Assembly (NCBI GenBank): GCA_026397175.1
Contig: JAPLVK010000015.1
Location: forward strand, 4,996-68,995
From: Candidatus Berkelbacteria bacterium
Lineage (GTDB): Bacteria > Patescibacteriota > UBA1384 > DTJR01
Length of the DNA stretch: 64,000 nucleotides
Direction of reading: 5' to 3'
Shown: in pieces, positions 6,045 through 57,780 of the stretch
Layout of the letters: each line of letters opens with the position of its first letter
Position numbering within the stretch: position 1 is the stretch's first letter
Program-made: the position numbers and the translations under genes
Notes under the pieces: model-generated
What the model was told of the DNA's origin: nothing
Databases searched by the model: none
Seen by the model: only the letters and a program-made list of their open reading frames with translations

Positions 6045-6563
6045 ATGCCAAGAGCTCGACGGTGGACTATAGAACAATTAAAAAAAGCGGTGAAAGAAGC
6101 TCGTAGCAAGCGAGGGGTTTTGATTGTACTTGGATTGAGGCCTACCGGTGGTAATTACAAACAACTTGAAAAATATATTAATGAATTAAATTTAGATACG
6201 ACTCATTTTTTGGGTAAGGGGTGGAATAAGGGATTGCAGTTCTGTCCGAAGCCGGCAATTCCAATCACTGAAATTTTAAAGAAAGATTCAGATTTTCAAT
6301 CTTATAAGCTAAAGAAACGATTATTCAAAGAAGGTTTAAAAAAAGAGAGATGTGAAGAGTGTGGTTGGGCGAAGTATTCTAGTGATGGGAGATTGCCTCT
6401 TGAATTAAATCATAAGAATGGGAATTCCGGAGACAATCGCATCGATAATCTAGAAATTCTTTGCCCAAATTGTCACAGTTTGAGGCCACATTATAGGGGG
6501 AGCAAGTTAAAAAAATGCCCGAATGGCGGAATTGGTATACGCGCATCACTTAAAATGATGTGA
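6045..6563 (+). CDS. HNH endonuclease (homing-endonuclease-like)
   Basis: ELNHKNGNSGDNRIDNLEILCPNCH HNH motif plus a CxxC pair; the 3' end runs into tRNA-Leu, so the true stop is uncertain. Confidence 0.65.
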   Translation: MPRARRWTIEQLKKAVKEARSKRGVLIVLGLRPTGGNYKQLEKYINELNLDTTHFLGKGWNKGLQFCPKPAIPITEILKKDSDFQSYKLKKRLFKEGLKKERCEECGWAKYSSDGRLPLELNHKNGNSGDNRIDNLEILCPNCHSLRPHYRGSKLKKCPNGGIGIRASLKMM

Positions 6564-6603
6564 CCGAAAGGTCTTGTCGGTTCGAGTCCGACTTCGGGCA
6601 CCA
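6517..6603 (+). tRNA. tRNA-Leu (anticodon TAA), long variable arm
   Basis: Acceptor GCCCGAA/TTCGGGC, anticodon stem CATCA/TGATG with loop CTTAAAA, variable hairpin GACCGAAAGGTC, T-loop TTCGAGT, CCA. Confidence 0.85.
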
Positions 6604-6714
6604 AAATCAAACTTTCCGTTTTTTTCCCGACCAATTCGGCGGCGCGAAGCGCCGAAATGTATGGCTGAACAGGGTTTCCGCGCGCTTCGCGCGCGTTCAA
6701 GTGGAGGTTCGAGC
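6599..6714. repeat. IR1-L (about 115 bp); inverted partner at 9519-9633, about 5 mismatches
   Basis: Reverse complement aligns base-by-base with 9519-9633; begins inside the tRNA-Leu 3' end and covers the recombinase C-terminal codons. Confidence 0.85.
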
Positions 6715-7830
6715 CAAAGATTTCTTTGGCAACAACCTTTTTTGCTAAAAGGTTGTTATCCCTTGCAATTTTAACGAGGGTTAAAGAGACTTTTATCCAA
6801 TTTTGAAACGGTTCGAGCCAATTATTTTGCTTTTGTTCAATCCGCGCCATTTGCTCATCAAGCGACTTCTTTTCCAAAAGAAGTTTTGTTTTTTGTTCGC
6901 GATAAATCTCTCTTTCAATATCTTGCTCTAAATAGCCGTCAAGAAGTCGCTGTAATTTTGTATTGATAGCGTGGATTTTGTTTTGAGCTTTTTGAACAAA
7001 AGCAAAACAGGATTGGGCGGACATTTCCTTGTCTCTTTCCGCCATTTCTAAAAGTTTGTCCGCCCACTTCTGGCTCAAAGAAACTCTTTGAATAAGAGCT
7101 GATAACTGCCGATCCAATTCCTCTTCGCGAATATATGGCTGAGTACATTTAATTTTCTTTTTTGAACAACGATAATAAATATGTCCTTTTTGTTTTTCGG
7201 CAGTTATCATCATTCCACATTCGGCGCACTCAATAAGTCCACAAAATGCTTGTGGCTCATTTTTTTGCTTGCGTTGTGTTTTGCCTCGTTGTTTCAAAAC
7301 TTCTTGCGCCGAATCAAAAAGTTTCTTTGAAATGATTGGCTCGTATTTTCCTTCGTGAAGTTCGCCATCATATTTGAATAGTCCAGTATAAAAAGGATTT
7401 GAAAGGATAAAAGTCACCCTCGTCTTGTGGATTTTCTTTCCGCCGCGGGAAAGTATCCCGCGTTGCGCCAAAAAGTTCGAAATATCCTCGAGGCGTGATG
7501 CGCCTTCGGCATACAGTTCAAATGCTTCTTTAGTGATTTTTGCTTTCTTTCTGTCTACCACAATGGTTTTGGTGCGCACATCGTTTATGTAGCCGATTGG
7601 CGCAAGGCTTGGATATTCGCCTCGTCTTACTTTTTGGCGCAAACCCCGCTTGGTGTTTTCGGAAAGAGAATCCACATAGTATTTGCTTTGCCCAAAAGCA
7701 ATGTTCAACATAAATTTTCCTTGCGGCGTTGGTTCAAACCAAAATTGAGGAAACTTCAACGCCACAATACGCCCGCAATCAATCAAATAAATTATTTGTC
7801 CGCCATCAACAGAATTGCGCGCCAATCTGT

Positions 7831-9231
7831 CAGACATTCTATGATAAATTTAAAGTGTTCCCCGCGCTATGCCGCCGGATGACTCATGGCATCCTGCGTC
7901 CCGCCATCGGCGGGATCGCCTTGGTCAGACTGTCTCCGGTGGCATAGGCGCGATTAGTCGCTTCAATAGCTCAATAGAATGTTGCTCCCTTTATGGGTAG
8001 CTTATGATAAATGGTTGCTTGGCGGCTTGAGTCGCGCTTTGCCCGGGACAGGAAGAGCAGAAAAATAAGGAAGGAGGTGAAAATGAACGCGTGTCTTACT
8101 CCCAAGTCAACCGTTGTTGGGGTTGATGTGCATAAATACTCTCACACAGCGGTAGCGATGAATTGCTTCGGCCAGGAAAAAGATCGGCTGGATTTCTCAA
8201 ACGACCGCTTGGATGATTATGTCTTATGGCTTCAGAGGTTAGGCCAAAAAGAAGATATTGTTGTTGCTCTTGAGGATGTAAACGGTTATGGATTTCATAT
8301 TGTCGAAAAATTGAGTCATGAAGGAATCAAAATGCGCTATGTTCCGGCGATACTCACCGAGCGGGACAGAAAACAAAGCATACACAGGGAGAAAAGCGAT
8401 AAGGAAGATGCAAAGCGGGTAGGAAAAGTCATCCTCACAAAGTTCGAGGAGACACTACCCGCCAAAGAAAGTATAGCAAATGAAGCGGAAAGGAACATAA
8501 GCGCCAATCTTGATTTTCTTACTTCCGAAAGAAGAGTGTTGGTTTCCGATAAAACAATTCTCAAAAACCAGCTCCACGCCATGCTTCATCAACTATTCGG
8601 AGATCATTATCAGGATGGATTTGCCAAAGTGTTCAACAGAAAAGCTGTCAGTTCTTATCGCAAGAAATTGTCTTCCTTCAAATCAGCCAATCCGATAAAA
8701 TCCGCTCTTGCTAAAAGCGTCATCAGGCGTTTCGACAGATTGTCTCTTGTCGAAAAACAACTTCAAGAAATAGATAAAACAATAAACGGTCTCGCTAAAA
8801 AATCAGAAGCGGTTATGGCGCTTAAAGACAATATCCATGGCTGTGGCGCAATTACGGGGGCGGCAATTATCGCCGAAGTAACGACTATTGATCGTTTCTC
8901 AAGCAAAGCCAAGTTTGCCCGATATTCCGGCATCGCTCCGATTAACAAATCTTCCGGCATGCACCAACGACTCTATACCAGCCCTTTTGGCAACCGGAAG
9001 ATGAATAGAGCTCTTCATACTATCGCTTTATGCCAAATTGCCTGCAGGGGAGATGACAGAGGGAAAGTATACTTTCAAAAGAAATTATCCGAGGGCAAAA
9101 CAAAACTTTGGGCGCTAAGATGTCTCAAAAGACAAATCTCAAATAGAGTATTTCAAGTGCTCAAAGAACAAAAAAGAGAGGAGACAATAATGCAATAAAA
9201 TAACCCAATAAATCCATGCTATTGACATAAA
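7831..9231 (+). mobile_element. IS110-family insertion sequence (1401 bp), no target-site duplication
   Basis: Flanks rejoin to restore a continuous recombinase reading frame (ctgtc|tggatgcc); lack of TSD/TIR is typical of IS110. Confidence 0.8.
8083..9198 (+). CDS. IS110-family transposase (DEDD N-terminal domain plus Transposase_20-like C-terminus)
   Basis: RBS AAGGAGGTG before ATG 8083; VGVDVHK...AFEDVNG motif pattern of IS110/IS1111 transposases. Confidence 0.8.
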   Translation: MNACLTPKSTVVGVDVHKYSHTAVAMNCFGQEKDRLDFSNDRLDDYVLWLQRLGQKEDIVVALEDVNGYGFHIVEKLSHEGIKMRYVPAILTERDRKQSIHREKSDKEDAKRVGKVILTKFEETLPAKESIANEAERNISANLDFLTSERRVLVSDKTILKNQLHAMLHQLFGDHYQDGFAKVFNRKAVSSYRKKLSSFKSANPIKSALAKSVIRRFDRLSLVEKQLQEIDKTINGLAKKSEAVMALKDNIHGCGAITGAAIIAEVTTIDRFSSKAKFARYSGIAPINKSSGMHQRLYTSPFGNRKMNRALHTIALCQIACRGDDRGKVYFQKKLSEGKTKLWALRCLKRQISNRVFQVLKEQKREETIMQ

Positions 9232-9474
9232 TGGATGCCAAGCCAAAATTCCGTCCGCTTCGCCCTTTTCAATACGCTTTATCATTTTGCCGAAAATATG
9301 GCGGCCGGGAATTTTGGCAGATTGTTTTTCAATAAATGTTTCAACGATATTCAAATTTTCTTGTTTGGCAAAAGCGCGCAATTCTGTGATTTGTGCTTCG
9401 ATAGACAAAATCTGTTTATCCTCCACATCGGTGGACTTGCGGGCGTATAAGAAAAATTTATTTTGATTATTCAT
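9232..9474 (-). pseudogene. serine recombinase N-terminal fragment (catalytic Ser region YARKSTD), truncated by IS110
   Basis: MNNQNKFFLYARKSTD...GILAWHP aligns with residues 1-80 of the intact recombinase at 47585-49081; reads into IS sequence after WHP. Confidence 0.8.
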
Positions 9475-9518
9475 ATTTTTTTATTGGGCAAAGCAAATGC
9501 TTTAAATTGCAAGGGATT

Positions 9519-9633
9519 TCGAACCTCCGCCTGAACGCGCGCGAAGCGCGCGGAAACCCTGTTCAGCCATACTCCTCGGCGCTTCGCGCCGCTGAATTGG
9601 TCGGGAAAAAAACGGAAAGTTTGATTTTGGTGG
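9519..9633. repeat. IR1-R (inverted copy of 6599-6714)
   Basis: See IR1-L. Confidence 0.85.
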
Positions 9634-9778
9634 AATTATACGACTCCGCTCGAACTTTTTTTGAACGAAATTTTTAAAAACTTTTCAAATGAATTCGGCT
9701 CGGGCGGGCAAAAAGGAAGGGGGGTGGGGGGAAGGAATTTTTGCCCGCTCTCGCTTTCCCGACGCTACTGGATTTCGT
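9627..9778. repeat. IR2-L (about 152 bp); inverted partner at 12518-12669, 1 mismatch; contains motif GGAAGGGGGGTGGGGGGAAGGAATT
   Basis: Reverse complement matches 12518-12669; shares core TTTGGTGG with IR1-R. Confidence 0.9.
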
Positions 9779-9894
9779 ATTTCGCTTCGCGAAATGCACC
9801 GCTGGAACTTTACTATTTTTAATTTTCGGTATACTATCAAAGTAGATGAAAGGAAGTAGCACTTATACTTTAATTCTACTATCACAATATCAGT

Positions 9895-10092
9895 ATGTCA
9901 AATATTCAAAAAACACTTAGAAAACTCAGAGAAGCCAAGGGCTTGTCCCAAGAAAAATTGGCGAGATTGTCAGATGTCGCCAATAATACTATTATTAAAA
10001 TTGAAGGTGGCAAAAACCAAAATCCAACACTCGATACTCTCAAAAAAATTTCAAAAGCTCTTGAGGTGAGTGTTGACGATTTGATAAACTAA
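9895..10092 (+). CDS. HTH XRE-family transcriptional regulator
   Basis: GLSQEKLARLSDVANNTIIKIEGG helix-turn-helix. Confidence 0.7.
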   Translation: MSNIQKTLRKLREAKGLSQEKLARLSDVANNTIIKIEGGKNQNPTLDTLKKISKALEVSVDDLIN

Positions 10093-10152
10093 AGTAAAGT
10101 GCGGAACAAAAACCCGTTTTAAAAATGATTTTTATTAAGGAAGAAAACCATA

Positions 10153-11190
10153 ATGGTTAAAAACAATAAAACAACTAAGAAATGCCCGCATTGCAAGGAA
10201 GAAGTTTTAATAGATGCTCGAAAATGTAAGCATTGTGGTGAGTGGCTTGAGACAAAAGAAACTAAGAAGGGGGCTGAGGATGTGGTGCTAAGACAGCCCA
10301 ATGAAGAAGCTAAAAAAACTTCCAATAGTGGCTTCATCGGTTTAATTATTATCCTTGTTATTGTTTTCTTGTTTATGAGTTGGTCAACGCGGTTTATGAT
10401 TTTTGCCTTTTTATCTTTTGTGGCATTGCTGATTGGGTTAACAGAGCCAGACAGATTCAAAAAATTAATCAAAAAACCTACACGAAAAAATATTGGTTTA
10501 GTTTTTGGCTGTGCTGTTCTAGCATTCCTTATTTTATTTGGGATTACTACGCCAAAAAATCCGACTATTGCTTTTAATGATTTAAATGATTCAAGTAAGG
10601 AAGTAACGGTTGGCAATTTTGACATAAAAGGCAAAGTTAGCCCTGCTGATAGCGCTATAAAAATAAAAAAAGATAATAAGACATACATAACTACATCGAA
10701 ACCAGATAAAAATGGTAATTTTACCTATAATGTAGATTTGAATGAGGGAGATAATAATTTCTCATTTACCGCTGATAATCACGGCAAAACATTTTCTATC
10801 TCCAAAAAACTAGTTAGAAAACTTTCTCAAGAAGAAACAACCAAGAAAGATGCAGAAGCAAAAGCCAAGGCCGAAGAGGAAGCTAAGGCAAAAGCTGATG
10901 CTGATGCTAAAAAATCTAGATATGAGGCTGGTTCAGTAAATAAACTAAAAAATATTCAGCCAATTTTTCTTGGAACATCAAAGGACAACTGGACTAAATT
11001 ATCGAAGTATATTCTAGCTGGTGATGACACAGGAGTAAAAAATATGATCTATTCTGGAGAAGCGCTTATTGCTGACGGAGGATCACAAATAAAAACAATT
11101 GAATGGAATTGGGGTATATTTCATGTTCGAATTTTGGAAGGTACAAGCAAAGACAGTGAAGCTTGGGTTTCGGATACTTTTGTTGAATAA
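10153..11190 (+). CDS. membrane protein with N-terminal CxxC-x-CxxC zinc ribbon, conserved 2-TM module and lysine/alanine-rich extracellular region
   Basis: CPHCKEEV...CKHCGEW; TM module paralogous to the next gene. Confidence 0.5.
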   Translation: MVKNNKTTKKCPHCKEEVLIDARKCKHCGEWLETKETKKGAEDVVLRQPNEEAKKTSNSGFIGLIIILVIVFLFMSWSTRFMIFAFLSFVALLIGLTEPDRFKKLIKKPTRKNIGLVFGCAVLAFLILFGITTPKNPTIAFNDLNDSSKEVTVGNFDIKGKVSPADSAIKIKKDNKTYITTSKPDKNGNFTYNVDLNEGDNNFSFTADNHGKTFSISKKLVRKLSQEETTKKDAEAKAKAEEEAKAKADADAKKSRYEAGSVNKLKNIQPIFLGTSKDNWTKLSKYILAGDDTGVKNMIYSGEALIADGGSQIKTIEWNWGIFHVRILEGTSKDSEAWVSDTFVE

Positions 11191-11206
11191 CTTTTAAAGG
11201 AAAAAT

Positions 11207-12067
11207 ATGAACACATTATTTTTACTTCTCTTCCTTGCCTCATTTATTTGTTTAATTATTGGCTTAACAAAACCCGCTACTTTTTCTCGTTTTATCAAAG
11301 GAAAATCCGCTAGAAAAAATATCGGGTTGATTTTTGGCATTGCTACTTTAGTATTTTTCATTTTATATGTGGCGACGGCTAATACCAGTGATAAAAAAAC
11401 GACAACGCAATCGCCGAGTTCTACAAAAACCACAGCAAGCCAGGAAAGCAAAACTGTAGAACCGAAGATCGCCGCCGCTTATAAAACTGTTGCGACCGAA
11501 GATTTAAGCATGAAAGCATTGGGAAATAAAAAATTATCCGATTACTCTAGCTCGGAAATTTCTAAGTTGCCGACCGACAAACGGTACCAGTTCCGAATTG
11601 TTATCGAAAAAAATCTCGATCAAGACAGTATAAAGAAAATTATCGAGTCACTCATTAGCGATAAAAGATCCGAGGATAGTGATATTGATGAACTTACTAT
11701 CTTCATCTATGATGACGAAAAAGATGCCAAGGAACCATACACAATCGGGAAAGCTATCTGGTCGCCAGGTGGGGTTTGGGGAAGTGTAACGCCTGAAATT
11801 GCCAGTAGCAATAACCGTGCCAATTATATAACAAATTATGAGTTCGTTACAAAAACTACAACAAATACCCTTACCGACAGGGAAAAAGAAATAAGGAATG
11901 ACTATAACAATAAACTCGATGAGTTACTCGCTAAGCAAACAGAATGGTCTTCGGATTCATCAACTGATGATGCAATTAATAAAGAACTCGAAGATTACAT
12001 TATGAAAAAATATTCAATTACAAAAGATGAATTGGATAAAATCATGGTCAAAGGTTTAATACAATAA
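11207..12067 (+). CDS. membrane protein paralogous (TM module) to 10153-11190
   Basis: CLIIGLTKPATFSRFIKGKSARKNIGLIFGIATLVFFIL aligns with ALLIGLTEPDRFKKLIKKPTRKNIGLVFGCAVLAFLIL. Confidence 0.5.
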   Translation: MNTLFLLLFLASFICLIIGLTKPATFSRFIKGKSARKNIGLIFGIATLVFFILYVATANTSDKKTTTQSPSSTKTTASQESKTVEPKIAAAYKTVATEDLSMKALGNKKLSDYSSSEISKLPTDKRYQFRIVIEKNLDQDSIKKIIESLISDKRSEDSDIDELTIFIYDDEKDAKEPYTIGKAIWSPGGVWGSVTPEIASSNNRANYITNYEFVTKTTTNTLTDREKEIRNDYNNKLDELLAKQTEWSSDSSTDDAINKELEDYIMKKYSITKDELDKIMVKGLIQ

Positions 12068-12078
12068 AATTGTAAAAT

Positions 12079-12489
12079 ATGGCAAACGAAAATCAAAAAC
12101 CTATCCATAAATTACCGGAGTCAACGATCCGTATTATGGAAGAAGCCCAAAAATCATACAAACGCTTGGCTGGTAGCATAGCAAATATGGCGAGTATTCT
12201 TCCAAAATTTCCCAAAATTGACATCTCAAAATTTCAAATACTCGACCAGCAAGAACGTGAAATAGTTCCGCCACTGAATTACGATCTTATGCATGAACAG
12301 AATGAATGGAAGCGACATATAGAAATTTTGGATGTGCAAAATGTGGTAGTTGAGACACTATCAGGAATTTTGAAAGAACAAAAATCTACAACAAAACTAA
12401 CATTGTGTCTAAAAAAATTAACATGGGCCATCTTAATTTTGACAATGCTAGGAATTGTAGCAACAGTTATATTTAGCATCATGAAATAA
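12079..12489 (+). CDS. hypothetical protein with C-terminal TM anchor
   Basis: ORF with terminal hydrophobic helix. Confidence 0.35.
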   Translation: MANENQKPIHKLPESTIRIMEEAQKSYKRLAGSIANMASILPKFPKIDISKFQILDQQEREIVPPLNYDLMHEQNEWKRHIEILDVQNVVVETLSGILKEQKSTTKLTLCLKKLTWAILILTMLGIVATVIFSIMK

Positions 12490-12517
12490 TGCAAGCGATG
12501 CGCCAGCTTTGCTGGCA

Positions 12518-12669
12518 CGAAATCCAGTAGCGTCGGGAAAGCGAGAGCGGGCAAAAATTCCTTCCCCCCACCCCCCTTCCTTTTTGCCCGCCCGAGCAGA
12601 ATTCATTTGAAAAGTTTTTAAAAATTTCGTTCAAAAAAAGTTCGAGCGGAGTCGTATAATTCCACCAAA
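12518..12669. repeat. IR2-R (inverted copy of 9627-9778)
   Basis: See IR2-L. Confidence 0.9.
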
Positions 12670-46487: not shown

Positions 46488-47456
46488 ATGAACTTTATAT
46501 CTATCGTTCGCAGAACAGAGATCGGATTTCTAAAGTTTTTTCTGATAGTTGGTCGGTTTTTTGCTTCTTTGTACTACAGGGTAAAAAGAAAAGTTGGGCC
46601 GAATTGGAGAAGTTATCTTAAAACAACTCTAATGGCAATTGTGATTTTGTATGTCATCGGCGCCGTTGTTTTTGGTGTTCGCCTTTATAAACAAAAGCGA
46701 TTTGAAAAAATTGATCTTATTGCTTCTTATGTTTACCCGTTTCCGGTTGCCCATGCCGGTCGGAGCTTTGTTTTTGACCGACAACTTCAGATTTGGGTAA
46801 ACTCTTCCAAAAAATTTGCAACCAAAAATGGCGTTGAAGCGCCGCCTGATTTAGCTCCCAAAATTCTAACCGAACTTACGAATTATGCCCTCTCGTCACA
46901 AGAAGCGGATTTGCTCAATGTCAAACTTACCCAAAAAGATATTGATGAAAAATTTGACTTAAGTATCGAAGGAATCGGGAGTCGCGATCAAGCTGCCGAT
47001 TTTATTAAGCAGAATTATGGACTTTCGCTTAATCAATTTAAGAGGATGATTACGCCGATGGTTTTGGTAGAAAAACTTCGCGACGAACAATTCGTTAGCA
47101 TTAAAGCAAGACATATTTTGGTCAAAGACGAAGGTAAATCCAAAGAATTATTGCAAAAAATCAAAGATGGGGCGAAGTTTGAGGATGTGGCCAAAGATAA
47201 TTCGGAAGATCAAAACTCAAAAGACGCCGGCGGACTTTTAGCAGGCGGAGAGTTTCTTTTCAGGGATTCAGGTTTAATTGCAGAGGTTGAAGACGCGCTT
47301 TTCAAGCTTAAAGCCGGTGAAATTAGCGAGCCCGTCAAAAGCGAATTTGGTTGGCATATCTTGAAAGCCGAAGAGCGCAAAGGAACAATTGATCTAAAAA
47401 TGGACGACTGGCTAAAATCCCTCCAGGGCAAATACCCCGTCAACTCCTGGATCTAA
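46488..47456 (+). CDS. PpiC/parvulin-type peptidyl-prolyl isomerase (PrsA/SurA-like), N-terminal TM
   Basis: ARHILVKDEG...GGLL...FGWHIL motifs. Confidence 0.75.
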   Translation: MNFISIVRRTEIGFLKFFLIVGRFFASLYYRVKRKVGPNWRSYLKTTLMAIVILYVIGAVVFGVRLYKQKRFEKIDLIASYVYPFPVAHAGRSFVFDRQLQIWVNSSKKFATKNGVEAPPDLAPKILTELTNYALSSQEADLLNVKLTQKDIDEKFDLSIEGIGSRDQAADFIKQNYGLSLNQFKRMITPMVLVEKLRDEQFVSIKARHILVKDEGKSKELLQKIKDGAKFEDVAKDNSEDQNSKDAGGLLAGGEFLFRDSGLIAEVEDALFKLKAGEISEPVKSEFGWHILKAEERKGTIDLKMDDWLKSLQGKYPVNSWI

Positions 47457-47549
47457 ATATATTGAGATCTGAATGATTTTCTGGTAAGATTTTCTCGTGA
47501 ATCTTTTATTTTAGAGTTTAGGATTTAGAATTTAGAATTTTTCTATTTT

Positions 47550-47626
47550 GGGGTGGTAGCTCAATTGGCTAGAGCAATTCCCTGTCACGGAATAGGTTGA
47601 GGGTTCGAGTCCCTTCCATCCCGCCA
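47550..47626 (+). tRNA. tRNA-Asp (anticodon GTC)
   Basis: Acceptor GGGGTGG/CCATCCC, D-stem GCTC/GAGC, anticodon stem ATTCC/GGAAT with loop CTGTCAC, T-loop TTCGAGT, discriminator G, CCA. Confidence 0.85.
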
Positions 47627-49081
47627 GTTCGTATGAGAAGTTTTTTGGAATAAAATTCCCCACGGATTTTCAGGTTTGAGAGCGACAATTCCTGCCCTGA
47701 CAAGACGGTTCGAGCCGATCTTTTTCAAAAGCTCCGCTTTTGCCACAAAATTTTGAGATGTTTGTAGATTACTGGCTTGGTGAACCTCATTTACCCAATC
47801 TGTAAGCGGTTCGAGCCACAAATTGCCCTTGCGATTAAGACGGGCGATTTTTTGTTTTAGAGCGACTTTCTGCTCGACAAGTTCCGACTTTTTAGTTTGA
47901 TACTCTTCAGCTTCCAAAAGCCCATCTAAATGAGCGTCGAGCAGTTTAGAAAGCCGCTTGTTCAATATCTCAAGTTCTTTTCCGACTCCCTTTATCGCAA
48001 GGGCAGATGATTGGATGTTATCAGTTTTCCATATTTCAATTTGTTTTTGCATTTTATTTGTCCAATCATCTTTCAAAGCCACTTTTGAAAAAATCTTGTC
48101 AACTTGGCTTGTCAGCTTCTCTTCACGCACAAATTTTTGTGCGCAAACACTGTTCTTTTTGGTGCAACGATAATAGCGAAAAACAAGCCCCGACTTTTTG
48201 ATTTGTCGTTCACCAGTGATCGCCCGCCCGCACTCTCCGCAGTTAAATACTCCACGAAATGGGAAATATAAAAGTTCTTTTGTTTTTCGCGGGCGACTTC
48301 GATTTTGCAAAGTTTGTTGCACCAAATCAAAAGTGGCTTTGTCAACTAAAGGCTCGTGTTTGGCTTCGTAAGTTTCGCCACCATAGCTAAAAAGCCCGAT
48401 ATAAAATTTGTTTCGCAAAAGTTTTTCCAAAACAGAACAAGACAAACCAATTCTTCCACGTTGGCTTTTTAGCTTCAAAGAAAGCGATAAAGTTTCCAAA
48501 TCTTTCAGAGAATATTTCCCCGTTGAATATTTACAAAACAGTTTTTTGATAAGCGGGGCTTTTTCATTGTCGATATCGATTGTATGACTTCGCAAATTAT
48601 TCGTGTAGCCAATCGGCGCCCAGCCGGGCCATTCGCCTCGGCGGAGTTTTTGTCTTAAGCCCCGCTTAACATTCTCTGAAAGATTATCGATGTAATATTT
48701 AGCTTGACCAAAAGCAATTTGGAGCATAAACAAACCTTGGCTGGACGGCTCAAACCAGTAAGTTGGAAACCTTAGAGAGCACAACTTGCCCCTATCAATC
48801 AGATTGATAATTTGCCCGCCATCAACTGCGTTTCGAGCCAGACGATCGGGGTTCCACGAAATGATTCCGTCGGCCTCGTCGTTGACGATTTTTTCGAGCA
48901 TTAAATTAAAAATTGGGCGGCCCGGCTCTTTGGCCGTTTTTGCTTCGATAAGTTCCTCAACAATTTCCAAATTATTTTGGCGGGCAAATTCATGAAGTTC
49001 GGCAAGTTGCGCTTCAATAGACAATACCTGTCTTTCCTCGTCATCGGTAGATTTTCGAGCATAGAGTATATATCTATTCAA
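47585..49081 (-). CDS. large serine recombinase (resolvase-type catalytic domain, recombinase domain, zinc ribbon, coiled coil), apparently intact
   Basis: YARKSTD catalytic-Ser motif, CGECG/C-x-C zinc ribbon; ORF has no stop until inside tRNA-Asp, so the exact 3' end is uncertain. Confidence 0.85.
   Translation of the reverse strand: MNRYILYARKSTDDEERQVLSIEAQLAELHEFARQNNLEIVEELIEAKTAKEPGRPIFNLMLEKIVNDEADGIISWNPDRLARNAVDGGQIINLIDRGKLCSLRFPTYWFEPSSQGLFMLQIAFGQAKYYIDNLSENVKRGLRQKLRRGEWPGWAPIGYTNNLRSHTIDIDNEKAPLIKKLFCKYSTGKYSLKDLETLSLSLKLKSQRGRIGLSCSVLEKLLRNKFYIGLFSYGGETYEAKHEPLVDKATFDLVQQTLQNRSRPRKTKELLYFPFRGVFNCGECGRAITGERQIKKSGLVFRYYRCTKKNSVCAQKFVREEKLTSQVDKIFSKVALKDDWTNKMQKQIEIWKTDNIQSSALAIKGVGKELEILNKRLSKLLDAHLDGLLEAEEYQTKKSELVEQKVALKQKIARLNRKGNLWLEPLTDWVNEVHQASNLQTSQNFVAKAELLKKIGSNRLVRAGIVALKPENPWGILFQKTSHTNWRDGRDSNPQPIP
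47620..47722. repeat. recombinase-module IR-L; inverted partner at 49157-49286 (1 mismatch plus a 37-bp hairpin-bearing insertion in the partner)
   Basis: Reverse complement aligns with 49198-49286 and, after the insertion, with 49157-49170; begins at CCCGCCAG of the tRNA-Asp 3' end. Confidence 0.85.
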
Positions 49082-49156
49082 CTTTCCTCCTTATCGCTTT
49101 CTTTGATTTGAAAATTTTGCGGGTGGTCGCATAGCGACCGAAAAAAGATCGGCTCA

Positions 49157-49286
49157 CACCGCTTTGCGGTGTCTGAAATGAATTTCAGGAATCGTCTTGT
49201 CAGGGCGGGAATTGTCGCTCTCAAACCTGAAAATCCGTGGGGAATTTTATTCCAAAAAACTTCTCATACGAACTGGCGGGGAATTC
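49157..49286. repeat. recombinase-module IR-R (inverted copy of 47620-47722)
   Basis: See IR-L. Confidence 0.85.
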
Positions 49287-49419
49287 TGAATGAAGCTCGA
49301 ATTTATTTTGAAAAGAATTTTTAGTAATGCTCGTGTCGCGCTTTGCGCGACACTCGCTCTCTGTTTTTCAAATTTCCTTTGGGTCGGGAAGGAGGGGGTT
49401 GGGGGGAGGAATTCGATTT
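49287..49419. repeat. cargo-module IR-L (about 133 bp); perfect inverted partner at 53532-53658; motif GGAAGGAGGGGGTTGGGGGGAGGAATT
   Basis: Reverse complement identical to 53532-53658; homologous to IR2 of element 1. Confidence 0.9.
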
Positions 49420-49421
49420 AT

Positions 49422-49949
49422 TTAACAAAAAAAGTTATTTGATCTCAGTTGTTCTTTTATTCTTAAAAGTTCAGATTGCGATATGATTTTTTCATCCTTC
49501 AAATAATCTAAGATAAATATCGTGTCCCTAAATTCCGCTTTATCAAATATTTTGATACTTTGTCTCAAGGCCTCATTTTTTGCACGCTTTTCATCAGCTA
49601 CAAAAACCGCTTCTAGTTCCTTCGCTAAAACCATAGCCGAAATCTCGCCCCTACCCAAACATTTTAACTCTTCTAGCCGTGCAAATAATTTTAAACTTAT
49701 AATCTGTTCGGGCGATTTAATTGAGATTTTACCCATGTTAATAATTTCTGTCAGAACAGCTAGCTTTTCGGAAAGCTCTGGCTTAAGAATGAAATTCGAA
49801 CTTATTCCTTCTTGTAATTCTTCAAAAACCTCTCTTGTTGTGATCAGATTACAGGGCAACTTTAAAATTAAATTAGTTCTCTCAACCCGTGCAAAGTTGC
49901 TTAGGACGTTATTATCAAAAACAAGAGTTTCATTCTCGATATTTTTCAT
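49422..49949 (-). CDS. PIN-like nuclease-fold protein (DUF4411-like), putative toxin/effector
   Basis: N-terminal LVFDNNVLSNF and GEISAMVLAKELEAVFVADE acidic-residue pattern typical of PIN folds; a COG2856-DUF4411 adjacency is recalled from memory. Confidence 0.5.
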   Translation of the reverse strand: MKNIENETLVFDNNVLSNFARVERTNLILKLPCNLITTREVFEELQEGISSNFILKPELSEKLAVLTEIINMGKISIKSPEQIISLKLFARLEELKCLGRGEISAMVLAKELEAVFVADEKRAKNEALRQSIKIFDKAEFRDTIFILDYLKDEKIISQSELLRIKEQLRSNNFFC

Positions 49950-50706
49950 CTCCCGCCCTCCTAATCTCAGCAACCAAATCTTTCGTTTCTTCGTAGCTCT
50001 TACGCAATAACTCAGCGAGCTTATCTAAGGTTATCATTTCTGTGAAATAGGCGTTAAATGCGAGTTTCAAATATTCACTTGGTAATTTTAATTCGCCATG
50101 CTCGACCGTCTTTTGTGGTTCATATCCAAGTTTTAAAGACAGAAAATTTAACCTGCTAGTTTCTAACAATTTAATTTTATAATCTTTGTCGAAACCATAT
50201 TTTAAATTATTCAGTTGATAAATTGTAGCTTGCCAGCTAACATCAAATTCATTGCGTATTCTAACAAGCTCTTCGTCTGTTAACTTATTTGACTTATTGT
50301 CCAACACTTCTTTGATGTAGGTTTTTACCCCGTTCCCTGGCATTAAAAAGTTAGCGGCAAAACAATCCGCTAACTTTTCATAGGTTGGCTTGGAACCCCC
50401 ATTGAATTCGATCAGTAGCGGTTGGGTTTCTTTATCTCTTAAATGGTGGCAATACTCGTGAACTGCAGTGAAATTTTGGTGACCTATAGAGCGATTACTG
50501 TTTACTAAAATACTCGAAAGATTTTTTTCTCTGTCGTAAAAAAATACTCCCGAAAATTCTTCCGAATCAACTGGCATTTTAACAACAAATATTCCCTGTC
50601 CTTCAAGCAGGGCAAAAAGATTTTTGATTGGGGCGTCATCAAGCCCTAGCTCTTTCCTCTTTGATTCAGAGAGCTGCCTTGCTTCGTCCAAATAATTAAT
50701 TGCCAT
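49930..50706 (-). CDS. ImmA/IrrE-family (COG2856) zinc metallopeptidase
   Basis: HEYCHH (HExxH) motif in an ImmA/IrrE-like context, downstream of an XRE regulator. Confidence 0.75.
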   Translation of the reverse strand: MAINYLDEARQLSESKRKELGLDDAPIKNLFALLEGQGIFVVKMPVDSEEFSGVFFYDREKNLSSILVNSNRSIGHQNFTAVHEYCHHLRDKETQPLLIEFNGGSKPTYEKLADCFAANFLMPGNGVKTYIKEVLDNKSNKLTDEELVRIRNEFDVSWQATIYQLNNLKYGFDKDYKIKLLETSRLNFLSLKLGYEPQKTVEHGELKLPSEYLKLAFNAYFTEMITLDKLAELLRKSYEETKDLVAEIRRAGDEKYRE

Positions 50707-51051
50707 TTATAACCTCTTCAAGGAATCAAAATCTTCACAGATTTTTTTAAATTCCAGTAAACTCTTTTTGCTTTGTTCCGACAATTTTTCGGTATTCCTA
50801 AAATGCATTACGGCCATCTCGAATTGGGGTATTTCGGAAAGTTTGCCTGAAATTATTTCGTTAGCTTCAATGCCATAGAGGTCGGCGAGACTAAATAGTT
50901 CGAAACTGTCAATTTTTCTCTTTCCCGATTCAATACCAATAATCGCCTGGCGAGTAAGTCCAAGCTCTTTAGCAACAAATTCTTGGCTAAAACCAAGCTT
51001 TTCGCGCAGATACTTAAGATTGCTTCCTATCTTTTCCAACAAAAGCTCCAT
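50707..51051 (-). CDS. HTH XRE-family transcriptional regulator
   Basis: GFSQEFVAKELGLTRQAIIGIESGKR helix-turn-helix. Confidence 0.75.
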   Translation of the reverse strand: MELLLEKIGSNLKYLREKLGFSQEFVAKELGLTRQAIIGIESGKRKIDSFELFSLADLYGIEANEIISGKLSEIPQFEMAVMHFRNTEKLSEQSKKSLLEFKKICEDFDSLKRL

Positions 51052-51153
51052 ATCCCCTCCTTTTTAATAATCTCAGTGTAGTTTTATTATACACAAATGT
51101 CAATATTTATGTTAGATTATATTACAACCGAATAATTATTTTATTTTAAGAAG

Positions 51154-52908
51154 ATGAAATACTGGGCTAAAGATAGAGAAGGCAATATTTATGAAAAATG
51201 TATTAGATGTGATTCGAATTCCAAAAAACATTTTGCTCGAGGTAGGTGCCATAACTGCTATCATAAATGGTTGGCTGATAATAATCCAGAATATAAAGAA
51301 AAGCTTCGAATAAAAGATAGATTAAAAGATAAAAGAAGAAGGCAAACAGAAAAGTTTAAAATTAAAGAAAGAGAAAAGGATAGAGCTAAACGAGTTAAAA
51401 AGGCCTATGAAGGTGAGACTAGTCACAAAAAAGAGGTTGAGTTGCTGCAAACCAAATATCACGAAGCAAATCGAAAAATCGATGAAGAGTTAAAATATAT
51501 TGAGCAGCAATCAGTAGCAGAAAAAGAAGAGGTGCATGAGGCATATGAATACATTAAAAAACTTGAATCAAGGATAGGTTTTTATGACGCGCCAAAAATA
51601 AAGTGTCCTTTTTGCAATACTGATTTTTTGTTTGAGTGGCCAAGGAAGTCAAAACCCATGCGAAGTCATCTAACAAAAAGCAATTGCCCGAACTGTAATT
51701 TTAATCCTGTGAGAGATGGGCTATGCATGAGATGCAATCGGGTCATAATCAACATAAAAGACTTTACTACAACGAACAATTATCCAATTTGCAATGACTG
51801 TTTACATATTATAAATAATCCGAGTAGATTTTTAGGGTTTGCAATTAAGGATTTCCATAATTACTGTGTAAAATGTGGAGCTAGATTAAGTTATAGAGTA
51901 GAGGAGCCTTCTTTGTGTTGGAATTGTAATGATCTATACAACGAAAAAGGGAAGGACCCGTATGAGTGTGACAAAGAATGGGTAGAAATAGAAACCGATG
52001 ATTCGGGCGGTGAATATCGGTTTGAAAGGCTTCCAATGTTAGAAGCTCCTTATACAGCAATTAAATATTTTTCTCAGCCGGGTTCTCCCAAGGATCACGA
52101 ATTTATTTTGAATTTAAAACATGAATTATCTTTAAGTTTAAAAATAGAGGATTTAGGAAATCCTTTAGGTTATCTGATGTATAAATCAACTATGTTCACA
52201 AGCAAAAATAAAGAGAAGATTTTAAATCGCATGAATCAGAAAATTGTAAAATGGGAGATAGAGAATGGTAGAAAAACTCTAGATTATTTTGGTAATGATT
52301 TGCAAACAACTCAAATATTTTCAGGAAATATCTCAAGACAAGAATACAGAGAATATAAATCGTCGATTATCGCAAGGTATAATCCCCGCAACTTGGGTTC
52401 AGACGATTCTCTGTCGAAAAAATTGACTGACGATGAAGTTGTCTCGATCAATATTGAAGGATTATCATTTTATAATTTACAACCTACGTTTCGGAAATTC
52501 CTAAATAGTTTAATTAGAGAAAGTGAAAATGAGATTAGGTTTGAAGTGGGCGTGCCTGCTATCGGCGAAGGTTGGGTTTCTGAAACAGAATTATTTCATA
52601 AAATTAAAGAAATTTGCGAGCAAGGTGGGTTAGATGCGATACACCACGCAAGACCAGAATGGCTTGGAATACAGCATCTGGATATATTTATTCCCAAGTT
52701 AAATATTGCAATCGAATATCAAGGAAAGCAACATAGTGAGCCAGTTGATTTCTTTGGTGGTGAAGAAGCTCACCTAAAAACTCTTGAAAGAGATAAAAAG
52801 AAAAAAGAACTTTGTGACCAGAATAACATTGAACTTAATTATGTTAATGAGGGTGATGATATAGAACTGTTGATTAAGGATTTACACGATCGTATTGTCC
52901 TTAAGTAG
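51154..52908 (+). CDS. multi-zinc-ribbon protein with C-terminal DUF559/Vsr-like PD-(D/E)xK endonuclease domain
   Basis: At least 6 CxxC pairs in the N-terminal 300 aa; C-terminal ...LDIFIPKLNIAIEYQGKQH... matches the D...(I/V)E(x)xG.QH pattern of DUF559 nucleases. Confidence 0.5.
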   Translation: MKYWAKDREGNIYEKCIRCDSNSKKHFARGRCHNCYHKWLADNNPEYKEKLRIKDRLKDKRRRQTEKFKIKEREKDRAKRVKKAYEGETSHKKEVELLQTKYHEANRKIDEELKYIEQQSVAEKEEVHEAYEYIKKLESRIGFYDAPKIKCPFCNTDFLFEWPRKSKPMRSHLTKSNCPNCNFNPVRDGLCMRCNRVIINIKDFTTTNNYPICNDCLHIINNPSRFLGFAIKDFHNYCVKCGARLSYRVEEPSLCWNCNDLYNEKGKDPYECDKEWVEIETDDSGGEYRFERLPMLEAPYTAIKYFSQPGSPKDHEFILNLKHELSLSLKIEDLGNPLGYLMYKSTMFTSKNKEKILNRMNQKIVKWEIENGRKTLDYFGNDLQTTQIFSGNISRQEYREYKSSIIARYNPRNLGSDDSLSKKLTDDEVVSINIEGLSFYNLQPTFRKFLNSLIRESENEIRFEVGVPAIGEGWVSETELFHKIKEICEQGGLDAIHHARPEWLGIQHLDIFIPKLNIAIEYQGKQHSEPVDFFGGEEAHLKTLERDKKKKELCDQNNIELNYVNEGDDIELLIKDLHDRIVLK

Positions 52909-52995
52909 TCCATCTACCCCTTATCCGTCTTGACAGTCAGGGATGTATCTATCAACATTGAATCTGATCTATTTAATAATGTGATAGGAGAAAAA

Positions 52996-53160
52996 ATGTA
53001 TCAGAAGGAATGTAAGTATTTTTACGAAAAAGAAGTTCGGACGCGCGAGATAGGGATGGTCAGGGGTTTCGCACTCGAACTCGTTCCAGTGTGTGAAAAA
53101 GTCGATGCATTCGAAAAACAACTACTTGAATGCGAAGATTGCGAGTTATATGAAGAATAA
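52996..53160 (+). CDS. small Cys-rich (zinc-ribbon-like) protein
   Basis: RBS TAGGAGAA before ATG 52996; CKYF...CEKVD...CEDCE. Confidence 0.3.
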   Translation: MYQKECKYFYEKEVRTREIGMVRGFALELVPVCEKVDAFEKQLLECEDCELYEE

Positions 53161-53464
53161 CGAACCAAATAAAAGACATGAAAAAATGAAAAGATGTTTA
53201 AATGTTATTTCGGTAATACTCTTGGGCTTACTGTATTTATTTTGTGGATATATAATATTGTCTCTCATTGGCGACAAAAAACCGATTCTGAATTACTACG
53301 AATTGATTTTTGTCATTCTTGCTCTTGGCATTATGTTTGTCGTAAGTATGGTTTTAAATTTCATGAGTGACAACCCATCGTCCGTGAATATCAATTTTTT
53401 TAAATTGTTTGGAGTAAAGTTTGACTACAAAGACAGGGGTCAAAATATCGAAAATAGCAAATGA
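53093..53464 (+). CDS. small 2-TM membrane protein
   Basis: ORF with two hydrophobic helices. Confidence 0.3.
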   Translation: MKKSMHSKNNYLNAKIASYMKNNEPNKRHEKMKRCLNVISVILLGLLYLFCGYIILSLIGDKKPILNYYELIFVILALGIMFVVSMVLNFMSDNPSSVNINFFKLFGVKFDYKDRGQNIENSK

Positions 53465-53531
53465 GCTTTTGGGCCTGAAGAGGCCATTCCCCAAATTATT
53501 TCAAAAAAATTCCGCCCAAAAAGCGGGTCGG

Positions 53532-53658
53532 GAATTCCTCCCCCCAACCCCCTCCTTCCCGACCCAAAGGAAATTTGAAAAACAGAGAGCGAGTGTCGCG
53601 CAAAGCGCGACACGAGCATTACTAAAAATTCTTTTCAAAATAAATTCGAGCTTCATTC
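53532..53658. repeat. cargo-module IR-R (inverted copy of 49287-49419)
   Basis: See cargo-module IR-L. Confidence 0.9.
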
Positions 53659-53765
53659 GGAGCTTCGGGTGGCCTTCGGCCACCAAAATAATCAACGAAG
53701 GGTGCGACCCGAAGTTTTCCGAAGGTAACCCAAAGCTTTAGCGGAGGGTTTAACGAAGGGTTGCG

Positions 53766-54008
53766 ATGTATTATGTTTATTTGCTCGAGCTTAAAGACCA
53801 GACTATTTATACCGGATCAACACCCGATATTAAGAACAGAATAAAAGAACATAATGACGGCAAATGCATATTTACAAGAGACCATAGACCGTTAAAATTG
53901 ATCTGGTACTGTGCTTTTCCTAACCGGCTAGCGGCAAGAAAATTTGAAAATTACTTAAAGAAAGGTTCGGGGCAGGCATTCAGAAATAAGCATTTAATTG
54001 ACGCGTGA
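53766..54008 (+). CDS. GIY-YIG-domain small nuclease
   Basis: YVYLLEL...YTGSTPDIKNRIKEHN GIY-YIG motif. Confidence 0.65.
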   Translation: MYYVYLLELKDQTIYTGSTPDIKNRIKEHNDGKCIFTRDHRPLKLIWYCAFPNRLAARKFENYLKKGSGQAFRNKHLIDA

Positions 54009-54015
54009 CCAAATC

Positions 54016-54035
54016 CCTGCCTGCCGGCAGGCAGG
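54016..54035. repeat. 20-bp GC palindrome CCTGCCTGCCGGCAGGCAGG (copy 3; others at 5921-5940 and 26876-26898)
   Basis: Exact copies at 26879-26898 and 54016-54035; variant with TA centre at 5921-5940. Confidence 0.8.
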
Positions 54036-54067
54036 CTCCCGCTTCCTTATCACTCAAGATCGGGCTT

Positions 54068-54130
54068 GTCCTGTTACAGACCAAAAGCATAGTGTCTTTT
54101 AACGGGGGTAAAAGTGTAGCGTCCCCTATG
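54068..54130 (-). repeat. REP-like repeat, inverted orientation (about 90% match to reverse complement of 57781-57848)
   Basis: Shares GGGTAAAAGTGTAGCGTCCCC core and the 38-bp CCATTAGAAGACACTATGCTTTCGGTCTCTAACAGG block. Confidence 0.75.
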
Positions 54131-54221
54131 GTTTAACTAACCGCCCCGCCTCTTCCATACCTGTTATTGTGGTGCTATAATTAAATTAATAACCAGCTGA
54201 TATAAACTTATTTATAATTAA

Positions 54222-54842
54222 ATGAAAGAAGAGCTAAAAGATATAAAGAACAATATTGAGATTATGAATCTCATTAAGTATTGCCAAGGTTATATAAAGC
54301 TCGTCAATCCCTCATTCAACAGATTCAGAATAAATACTGACCCTATTGAAGAAAAGTATCTAAGTACCGATATTTTATATCAAGACAGCGACGAGGAAGA
54401 TGAATTTGAAATAAATCTGAAAGAGTTTTATGAGAATGACCCTAAAAACGTTCCAGAAGAAGCCAAAGAAGAATACGGAAAGCAGAAAGAACTCGCACAA
54501 CAGCTCGAGCAGATAAAGAATCGTTTTAATATAAGTGAGTATACAAAGCAGGTCAACCTTAATTTCGGATATTTTAAGGTAGAGGTGCCCGAGCCGGAAA
54601 TCGATGAATTCTCTGAGGATGATACCGAAGAAGATAAGCCCAAAAAGAAAAAATCTGACATCTATCCATTGTTCTCTTTACCAATTAAAGTTATAGCCGA
54701 CAGGCAATTTTCAATAAAGTTGAAGGATGTGAACATTATTCCAAACATCGGTTTCTTATTCGATGTTCTTGGTGAAGAAAAATTTTATGAATTTGCCGAC
54801 TTCATAAACAAACAAGAGATTGAAGGAGCTCTGAGGTTTTAG
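54222..54842 (+). CDS. hypothetical acidic protein flanked by REP-like repeats
   Basis: ORF only. Confidence 0.4.
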   Translation: MKEELKDIKNNIEIMNLIKYCQGYIKLVNPSFNRFRINTDPIEEKYLSTDILYQDSDEEDEFEINLKEFYENDPKNVPEEAKEEYGKQKELAQQLEQIKNRFNISEYTKQVNLNFGYFKVEVPEPEIDEFSEDDTEEDKPKKKKSDIYPLFSLPIKVIADRQFSIKLKDVNIIPNIGFLFDVLGEEKFYEFADFINKQEIEGALRF

Positions 54843-54914
54843 GGGGTTTTAGGGGACGCTACACTTTTACCCTGATGATTGGAGATAACAGCATTTTTGT
54901 GTTACTATTAGCAC
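54841..54914 (+). repeat. REP-like repeat (GGGGACGCTACACTTTTACCC core plus GATTGGAGATAACAGCAT block) immediately upstream of the Y1 transposase
   Basis: Core shared with 57791-57811; reverse complement at 54100-54120 and 55583-55603. Confidence 0.8.
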
Positions 54915-55574: not shown

Positions 55575-55576
55575 AG

Positions 55577-55628
55577 ATCAGGGTAAAAGTGTAGCGTCCC
55601 CGATTCTCATAGCGTCCCCGATTCTCAA
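55577..55628 (-). repeat. REP-like repeat (inverted core) with internal tandem duplication of GTAGCGTCCCCGATTCTCA
   Basis: Sequence comparison with the other copies. Confidence 0.75.
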
Positions 55629-55687
55629 CAAACAAACACTAATTTTGATAAAATAAAAAAGTAATTATAAATTATAAAGGAGGATCG

Positions 55688-55822
55688 ATGGCTCTAAAAA
55701 AGATTGCGAAAAAAACTGCGTCTTCTATCGGCAATACCACGAAAAAGGGTGTCAAAGACATTGGCAAAGCCGTCCGCAAAGGCATCAAAGACACGAAGAA
55801 AACCATCAAAAAAACTCTTTAA
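55688..55822 (+). CDS. small lysine-rich protein (44 aa)
   Basis: RBS AAGGAGG 8 nt upstream of ATG; below the ORF-track size cutoff. Confidence 0.3.
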   Translation: MALKKIAKKTASSIGNTTKKGVKDIGKAVRKGIKDTKKTIKKTL

Positions 55823-56026
55823 CAAATAGCACTAACAACGAATTCTTTAAATAGGTTTTAGCTGTGGTATTTTGTTTCATTTTTACCCTCATAAGGAGTG
55901 GGAGGATCTACGGGGTAGGGGACGCTTTAAACTCCACCTGCCGGGTGGAGTTTTGGTGAATACGGGGATGGGATCATTGAATTTTGCTTCAGTTAAGAGT
56001 AGTTTATTATAGAGGTAAAAATTAAT

Positions 56027-57776: not shown

Positions 57777-57780
57777 TTTA

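Follow-up and report, generated by a model that had tools for sequence, protein, structure and literature searches.

Probable large-serine-recombinase islands at tRNA 3' ends, with an inverted attP-like site inside the integrated element, found twice in a Berkelbacteria contig

We analysed 64,000 nucleotides of a Candidatus Berkelbacteria contig (JAPLVK010000015.1, positions 4,996 to 68,995, assembly GCA_026397175.1), hereafter the window, which carries two insertions of the same architecture, element 1 (E1) at a tRNA-Leu gene and element 2 (E2) at a tRNA-Asp gene (Table 1). In E2, our main subject, the gene of a large serine recombinase (LSR) runs convergently towards the tRNA and is associated with one pair of inverted repeats (X and X'), and a cargo segment bounded by a second pair of inverted repeats (Y and Y') follows on the far side. 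We think it likely that E2 belongs, as an integrated copy, to a large family of small islands that are moved by an LSR into the extreme 3' end of tRNA genes, and that the point where the two repeat pairs meet corresponds to a complete attachment site, attP, lying inverted inside the element.

The E2 recombinase matches the Pfam domains Resolvase (PF00239, E 6e-22, residues 5-151), Recombinase (PF07508, 2e-9) and Zn_ribbon_recom (PF13408, 1.7e-8), and has the catalytic motif YARKST with R9 and S11 invariant in a 30-sequence alignment; residues ~330-440 look heptad-rich by eye and may hold the coiled-coil motif that controls directionality in the zinc ribbon of LSRs. A homologue of the same length is 92% identical. 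The identity to any phage or plasmid LSR is at most 28%, NCBIfam gave only sub-threshold matches to CcrB, CcrA and XisF, and a sequence search of the PDB returned isolated N-terminal domains only. The last 13 codons of the open reading frame (ORF) are antisense to tRNA-Asp. The ORF reads across the crossover core, so the C-terminus of the protein depends on the state of the element, and the excised or flipped state would give the tail GILNEARIYFEKNF (47585-47626, 49169-49324); in the subgroups at Ala and Pro tRNAs, the recombinase ORF stops short of the core. A motif noticed by eye, AAAGCGATAA, precedes the recombinase start codon by 10-60 nt in distant members of the family, namely E2 (49090-49100) and the loci L086, L052, L087 and L119 of the survey described below; it could serve as a -10-like element or be bound by a protein. 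A promoter and terminator scan found sites no more frequently than in shuffled sequence, and an Rfam scan of 47000-54500 found the tRNA only, the repeat arms matching no known RNA family.

A first-pass annotation of the window, made from its letters alone, had described an inverted repeat flanking an intact 498-residue recombinase, with one mismatch and a 37-bp hairpin insertion. The recombinase is intact and the repeat is present, but it pairs 47620-47711 with 49189-49280 over 92 nt with two mismatches, the insertion (49156-49188) measures 33 nt, and 14 further nucleotides match beyond it (47712-47725 with 49142-49155). Its left arm begins, as proposed, with CCCGCCA, the last 7 nt of tRNA-Asp. 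This arm does not flank the gene; it lies inside the 3' end of the ORF, where X makes up the last ~45 codons on the minus strand and ends at GGTTCGAGCC (47707-47716, codons IGSN). The inverted core, previously placed at 49278-49286, is TGGCGGG at 49274-49280. The cargo repeat is a perfect inverted match of 127 nt, as had been stated (49288-49414 with 53532-53658), although it does not follow the core immediately: it starts at 49288, after a GAATTCT spacer that belongs to the Y arm at the middle site. The right end of E2 indeed has no third copy of the core, since Y' stops 7 nt short of the position where the core would be expected.

The architecture is not a one-off rearrangement and goes far beyond what chance would produce. 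The modular family suggested in the first-pass annotation recurs in E1 and in most of 160 related loci, 80 from species-representative genomes and 80 from JGI metagenomes, the latter gathered by relatedness to the E2 recombinase, which we analysed by self-BLAST and ARAGORN and which bear the labels beginning with L in this text. Further copies, whose absence would have spoken against a family, turned out to be abundant, with >5,000 recombinase homologues at E ≤ 1e-20, mostly in the candidate phyla radiation (CPR)/Patescibacteria. An inverted repeat surrounds the recombinase at 130 of the 160 loci, and at 96 of these 130 the C-terminal arm meets a convergent tRNA. Fourteen tRNA types are targeted (Gln, Gly, Asn, Pro, Ala, Ser, Leu, Arg, Asp, Trp, Lys, Glu, Val and Ile), and the choice of tRNA follows the relatedness of the recombinases. 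The abutting second repeat pair was found at 29 loci, including half (22/44) of those with >6 kb of upstream sequence; L007, a complete genome, has the repeat pair around the recombinase and a P-type arm at site B (the middle junction), and the second repeat pair was not found there within 10 kb upstream. Further hosts are Omnitrophota, Ignavibacteriota and a Chitinophagaceae bacterium (PMP191F; L077), and the independent assemblies with the repeat architecture include the 1.8-Mb Ignavibacteriota contig L036. Many contigs end 50-100 nt outside X', the usual behaviour of de Bruijn assemblers at repeats longer than k. A scan of IMG/VR yielded five weak loci only and no circular forms, so phage contigs are not the typical setting of these islands. 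These islands are very widespread and apparently undescribed.

The identity of the sites emerges from a comparison of the three junctions, each read in the orientation of the tRNA. Junction A consists of tRNA, core and X, junction B (taken as its reverse complement) of Y', core and X, and junction C of Y', core and flank. The right side of B is that of A, its left side is that of C, and the core is the overlap of these identities; in E2, site B reads on the minus strand as ...AAATTCGAGCTTCATTCAGAATTC / CCCGCCA / GTTCGTATGAG..., the last part being X. This comparison shows A to have the composition of an attL, C that of an attR, and B that of an attP without interruption, in inverted orientation within the element, and such an internal inverted copy would give rise to the two abutting inverted-repeat pairs. 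None of this was contained in the first-pass annotation, neither the middle junction as an inverted attP, nor the outer ones as attL and attR, nor the missing core as a damaged attR. The three-junction composition is readable in E1, E2 and 19 further loci, with a core of 2-13 nt in the 19, always at the extreme 3' end of the tRNA. Core orientations alternate (o, o', o), and the middle core is common to both repeat pairs; E1 and the 19 other loci have a direct-orientation core at both outer junctions (in E1, CACCAAA at 6599 and 12663). Where both flanks are visible, in about 45 loci, the upstream flank is P-type and the downstream flank is the tRNA.

A second line of evidence comes from the spacing within the left arms. 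In characterised serine integrases, attB shares a motif with attP that lies 5 bp closer to the centre, namely the zinc-ribbon domain (ZD) motif found at bp 16-24 of the half-site in attP (PMC3783163). By this numbering, the centre of the site coincides with the opening bases of the shared core, which is where a crossover has to take place. The Y' arms carry a conserved motif (...tTtTc-N-AAAATAAGTTCGAAC...) whose GTTCG lies 21-23 nt left of the core, and the T-loop GTTCGA of the tRNAs lies 16-18 nt left of it. In 63 of 74 distinct loci, the GTTCG-like motif of Y' is exactly 5 bp farther from the core than that of the tRNA, and a degenerate GTTCG motif would be expected at one given position with a chance of ~1%. 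The distances are 22 and 17 nt in E2, where the motif of site B is ATTCGA at 49297-49302, and 23 and 19 nt in E1. The comparison shows that the putative attP copies the T-arm of its target at attP spacing. By such mimicry, one enzyme family could retarget among at least 14 tRNA types while keeping the T-loop-like motif and changing little more than the core.

Table 1. Features of the two elements and their targets (positions are those of the window).
Feature	Position	Strand	Basis or remark
E2: tRNA-Asp(GTC), presumed integration target	47550..47626	+	ARAGORN; Rfam tRNA 68 bits; sequence
tRNA-Asp T-loop GTTCGA	47603-47608		17 nt left of core
Core CCCGCCA	47620-47626	+	last 7 nt of tRNA-Asp
Large serine recombinase, intact, 498 aa	47585..49081	-	Pfam domains; conserved catalytic residues; same-length homologue
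Site A, attL-like: tRNA 3' part (B-type arm) / core CCCGCCA / X (P'-side arm)	47596..47675	+	three-way site comparison
X, coding copy of repeat 1	47620..47725	+	
X', non-coding inverted copy of X, upstream of recombinase gene	49142..49280	-	49189-49280 + 49142-49155, hairpins between
Double hairpin in X', splitting GGTTC/GAGCC (codons IGSN)	49156..49188	-	fold z-score -3.9
Inverted core TGGCGGG	49274-49280		
Site B, complete attP-like site, inverted orientation	49225..49335	-	three-way comparison; 5-bp rule of PMC3783163
Y, cargo-side arm at site B, including P-type half-site	49281..49414	+	
GC hairpin inside Y	49333-49353		
Purine mirror repeat GGAAGGAGGGGGTTGGGGGGAGGAA inside Y	about 49388-49412		
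Cargo operon	49422..51051	-	Pfam; PADLOC; NCBIfam
183-aa protein	49422-49973	-	PDC-S70-like by PADLOC
M78/ImmA-type peptidase	49930-50706	-	capH/capP-like regulators, with XRE HTH, by PADLOC
XRE helix-turn-helix (HTH) protein	50707-51051	-	Pfam; capH/capP-like regulators, with M78/ImmA-type peptidase, by PADLOC
Rightward cargo: 584-aa Cys-rich protein and small ORFs 52930-53160, 53093-53464	51154..53464	+	
Y', distal cargo arm (P-type arm of attR-like site)	53532..53658	+	last 7 nt of arm and core missing
E1, same architecture, target tRNA-Leu	6517..12669	+	
E1 core CACCAAA	6599 (+), 9626 (-), 12663 (+)		
E1 arms	X 6599-6712, X' 9519-9632, Y 9633-9778, Y' 12517-12662		
IS110-family insertion splitting E1 recombinase	7832-9231		
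Purine mirror repeats in the window	49388-49412, 53534-53558 (E2); 9712-9735, 12560-12583 (E1)		

The extent of the mobile unit is indicated by two tandem arrays. In L029, the order is recombinase #2 (a frameshifted pseudogene), X, core, Y, cargo, Y', core, X', recombinase #1, X, core and tRNA-Asn, and the junction between the units, Y'-core-X in direct orientation, is the one predicted for an excised circle; L031 has the same arrangement with a different Y. The arrays indicate that the repeating unit extends from one core to the next, with the internal inverted attP as part of it. Such a unit would excise as a circle by attL x attR, the circle would hold two identical inverted attP regions between the 1.4-kb recombinase segment and the cargo segment, and it would integrate by attP x attB. 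X/X' and Y/Y' would then represent both sides of a single attP region duplicated in inverted orientation, rather than transposon ends, and gene conversion probably keeps the copies identical. The canonical rules for LSRs would bar the internal attP from reacting with attL or attR, which fits the strong bias towards one orientation described below; any second tRNA 3' end that shares the core would remain available to it as a partner. The internal attP would also lie between the divergent recombinase and cargo/HTH genes, where binding of the recombinase could regulate both. In E2, the recombinase, attL and internal attP are intact and the attR is damaged by the loss of the core and 7 nt of the arm, so attL x attR excision should no longer be possible and the element is probably no longer excisable.

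Several points weigh against this interpretation. Neither the circle nor an empty site has been directly observed, and empty tRNA-Asp and tRNA-Leu sites were not sought. Doubly flipped islands, which would be expected if both attP were used equally, were seen at none of about 130 loci, and their absence is the main unexplained point of the circle model. The attR assignment in E2 relies on family homology, as the attR of E2 itself has no core. The X arm is not typable as P' or B', its A-run/T-run being 2-4 bp asymmetric about the core; it displays weak symmetry only, (A)TTCG-N0-2-TTTTTT, and the 5-bp rule covers the left arms alone. No conserved directionality factor is evident in the islands, and some of them have a single unrelated cargo gene.

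The inverted attP may have been kept for several reasons: as an operator, as a live attP, as a cis-acting directionality site, or as a neutral, self-maintaining duplication. That it is a functional cis element in one of two versions, an architectural/directionality site or a live attP, rather than a passive duplicate, is a tentative idea to which we assign a minor chance. In the first version, a recombinase dimer on the internal attP may engage the auto-inhibited complexes at attL and attR, forming a synapse of three sites, and a one-protein element could thereby excise without a separate directionality factor. In the second, a permanently live attP may recombine with other tRNA genes that have the same 3' end, and the islands would drive tRNA-to-tRNA chromosomal inversions in the tiny CPR genomes. 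L052, where the recombinase lies between tRNA-Ser(GCU) and tRNA-Ser(GGA), and L119, where it lies between two tRNA-Gly genes, would be footprints of such events; both are short contigs that could be chimeric and are not firm evidence. We considered and rejected four other models of the arrangement. The alternation of the three cores, o, o', o, speaks against an independent cargo element that has a palindromic attP of its own, against an origin resembling recombinase-mediated cassette exchange (RMCE), and against integration of a folded single-stranded form; it also speaks against a loss of polarity via a palindromic crossover dinucleotide, and the E1 core CACCAAA has no self-complementary dinucleotide.

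An improbable alternative is an invertible switch, in which the recombinase would often flip its own segment (A-B), the cargo (B-C), or both, in the manner of Hin and the H segment, making the expression of recombinase or defence genes phase-variable. The recombinase gene does lie inside a segment flanked by inverted repeats, and a flip would alter the C-terminal tail of the recombinase and give read-through from the tRNA (ORF 49169-49324). The recombinase segment is flipped in L041, where the repeats are only 74% identical and leave no assembly ambiguity, and probably in L076. However, the flipped cases among the 130 loci that have repeat 1 are these two and two short contigs; a single orientation, with the recombinase convergent with the tRNA, prevails at about 95% of loci, although minority isomers might be hidden behind consensus assemblies. 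The orientation of the cargo is constant as well, with the HTH gene beside site B reading away from it. Inversion would leave all junction sequences unchanged, and little regulatory effect would be expected. The enzyme is a 498-aa LSR of the integrase type and not a small (~190 aa) invertase with a C-terminal HTH, and a pure switch would have no need of a tRNA end and a direct core copy at its outer sites. By the published rules for LSRs, neither attL x attP nor attP x attR is allowed (PMC3783163), which makes homologous recombination the more likely source of the rare flips.

Marginally less probable still is a resident platform, in which the recombinase module would stay fixed at the tRNA and the Y-bounded cargo alone would be exchanged, through sites B and C or by homologous recombination across conserved flanks, much as in an integron. 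It would accommodate the association of recombinase lineages with tRNA type, the half of the loci with >6 kb upstream that have no detectable second Y arm, and the relatives of E2 with 88-92% identical recombinases, which have X and the ~30 nt of Y nearest the core in common, the rest of Y being ~70% identical and the cargo different; these relatives also fit the modularity proposed in the first-pass annotation. Against a platform, the cores around the cargo are inverted, so that the cargo alone cannot excise by conservative recombination, the tandem arrays repeat the whole recombinase-plus-cargo unit, and the decay of the recombinase, by an IS110 insertion in E1 and a frameshift in L029, is what would be expected of a selfish and not of a domesticated gene. 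Two adjacent transposon-like elements with terminal inverted repeats, or a fold-back chimera of metagenome assembly, might account for the long inverted repeats bounding each module, the many contigs that break at repeats and the possibly chimeric L052 and L119, but they are effectively refuted by the single core common to both repeat pairs and its identity with the tRNA end, the lack of target-site duplications (the cores flanking a module are inverted, and no unit has the direct duplication of a DNA transposon or insertion sequence), the attP/attB spacing rule followed by the arms, the systematic difference between the copies, with the hairpin insertion in the non-coding one only, and the recurrence of the structure in well over 100 independent assemblies from different assemblers and twice in this window.

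Returning to the LSR-moved islands, the repeats themselves are far longer than an integrase needs, 75-160 bp for X/X' and 90-435 bp for Y/Y' across the family. Within an element, the pairs are usually 98-100% identical, often 100%, and the arms are unrelated between elements; some loci have decayed pairs with 74-90% identity, and repeat 1 of E1, whose recombinase is broken, is 95% identical. This pattern of identity points to ongoing homogenisation of the repeats, probably by gene conversion and perhaps promoted by the active enzyme.

An insertion equivalent to that in X' of E2 is present in 65 of 116 loci, in the non-coding copy only, and it always interrupts GGTTC/GAGCC; past it, similarity to the coding copy returns for 17-35 nt. 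There are 57 distinct insertion sequences, either about 32-37 or about 59-61 nt long, with a median pairwise identity of 35%; 52 of them fold into at least two adjacent hairpins, and the median z-score against shuffles is -4.6. The double hairpin is therefore a conserved structured element in the recombinase leader. We rejected a random miniature inverted-repeat transposable element as the explanation of the 33-nt insertion, as position and fold are conserved and the sequence is not.

The cargo of E2 between Y and Y' is 4.1 kb long; the 584-aa Cys-rich protein had no family match in Pfam or PADLOC. In a census of 69 cargo proteins from 21 elements, XRE-type HTH proteins were the sole recurrent family (10/69). 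The first cargo gene commonly encodes such a protein of 65-73 aa and, where seen, adjoins site B and reads away from it. The other cargo is mainly type I and II restriction-modification systems, AAA_15/AAA_21 ATPases and SNF2 helicases, with a few metabolic genes, and no replication genes were found among the 69 proteins; defence genes make up most of the cargo. The tRNA-Asp sequence next to the recombinase of L086/L096 (1780-2650), an 88%-identical relative of E2, is only a 3' fragment of 26 nt, and the full tRNA-Asp lies 765 bp farther, past a 125-aa ORF and two Y-like AAAAAGTTCGA motifs; the arrangement resembles what a previous insertion at this tRNA would have left behind.

The recombinases of E1 and E2 are only 40-58% identical. 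The cargo arms of the two elements are related beyond low complexity, as had been proposed from a common G-rich block: their local alignment scores 38, against 15.5 ± 2.3 for shuffles (maximum 28), and both carry the motif ...AAA(N)TTCGAGC..., although the shared stretch is short. The block is a purine mirror repeat (GGAAGGGGG-N2-4-GGGGGGAAGG) enclosed by an 8-12-bp inverted-repeat stem. It has the further copies for which the first-pass annotation had suggested a search, being present on one strand or the other in 22 of 72 distinct Y arms, with recombinases that target different tRNAs, and it could be an H-DNA, a G-quadruplex or a protein site. The insertion in the E1 recombinase, between residues 78 and 79, belongs to the RNA-guided, 'bridge'-type IS110 family (NF033542, E 1e-45); upstream of its ORF is a GC-rich leader of ~170 nt (7840-8010) that could be a guide RNA.

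The islands share with the LSRs of phages and integrative and conjugative elements (A118/LI, phiC31, Bxb1, SPbeta SprA, TnpX, CcrAB, XisF) the set of Resolvase, Recombinase and zinc-ribbon domains, the short identical core, an attP of about 55-60 bp with quasi-symmetric arms, an attB motif 5 bp nearer the centre, and, in E1 and the 19 other loci, attL- and attR-like hybrids that flank the element. Unlike them, the islands would target the 3' ends of many different tRNA genes via T-arm mimicry, keep a second, inverted attP inside the integrated element within 90-435-bp perfect repeats, have the attP core at or inside the 3' end of the recombinase gene, and possess no recognisable directionality factor. 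Targeting of tRNA genes is typical of tyrosine rather than serine integrases. In form, the predicted quadripartite arrangement resembles the yeast 2-micron plasmid and the class-E genome of herpes simplex virus (HSV; a-b-UL-b'-a'-c'-US-c-a), which also have two unique segments, each in its own inverted repeat, with an internal junction that is an inverted copy of the joined termini, and the predicted circle would have two inverted recombination sites. The enzymes there are the Flp tyrosine recombinase and host or viral homologous recombination, and those genomes isomerise freely, whereas the islands show one dominant isomer and no evident replication genes in their cargo; the likeness is one of form and not of membership. 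In Hin/Gin/Cin systems, a serine recombinase gene (Hin) similarly lies within a segment bounded by inverted crossover sites, but these are small invertases with 26-bp sites and an enhancer, without integration or a tRNA target, and both orientations are common, whereas the second orientation is rare in the islands.

Tycheposons, too, are small islands of cargo or defence genes that occupy tRNA 3' ends of streamlined genomes and form tandem arrays. They overwhelmingly use a tyrosine recombinase (27 of 937 use an LSR), have direct tRNA-fragment repeats and often replication genes, and neither an internal inverted attP nor paired inverted repeats are described for them (bioRxiv 10.1101/2020.12.28.424599); the islands differ in having a serine recombinase and a direct repeat that is the 2-13-nt core only. 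Two inverted serine-integrase attP sites also bracket a DNA segment in MiMIC and phiC31 RMCE cassettes, which, unlike the islands, are man-made and need two inverted attB on the partner; these engineered cassettes were all that a full-text literature search for an internal inverted attP returned, with no natural element among the results.

If the interpretation as LSR-moved islands holds, the thousands of homologues, mostly from CPR/Patescibacteria and also from Omnitrophota, Ignavibacteriota and Chitinophagaceae, would form a large coherent clade of serine integrases. Because each integrated copy carries its own intact attP, attP, attB, attL and attR would all be readable from single genomes, and the family might be a ready catalogue of orthogonal integrase/site pairs for genome engineering. 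The islands might also be a main vehicle of defence genes, restriction-modification and others, in hosts with almost no other known mobile-element biology, and the conserved inverted attP raises a clear mechanistic question. The 90-435-bp perfect repeats would explain why assemblies often break beside tRNA genes.

Directly right of E2 lies an 80-aa GIY-YIG ORF (53766-54039), followed by the palindrome CCTGCCTGCCGGCAGGCAGG, which has a second occurrence at 5916-5946. Farther on, an IS200/Y1-transposase ORF (54915-55574) is situated between 37-nt inverted repeats (54852-54888 / 55565-55601) and also within related 60-nt inverted repeats (54070-54129 / 57787-57846), with GGGGACGCTACACTTTTACCC in common; the region 54070-57846 looks like an arrangement of the type formed by repetitive extragenic palindromes and their associated tyrosine transposases (REP/RAYT).

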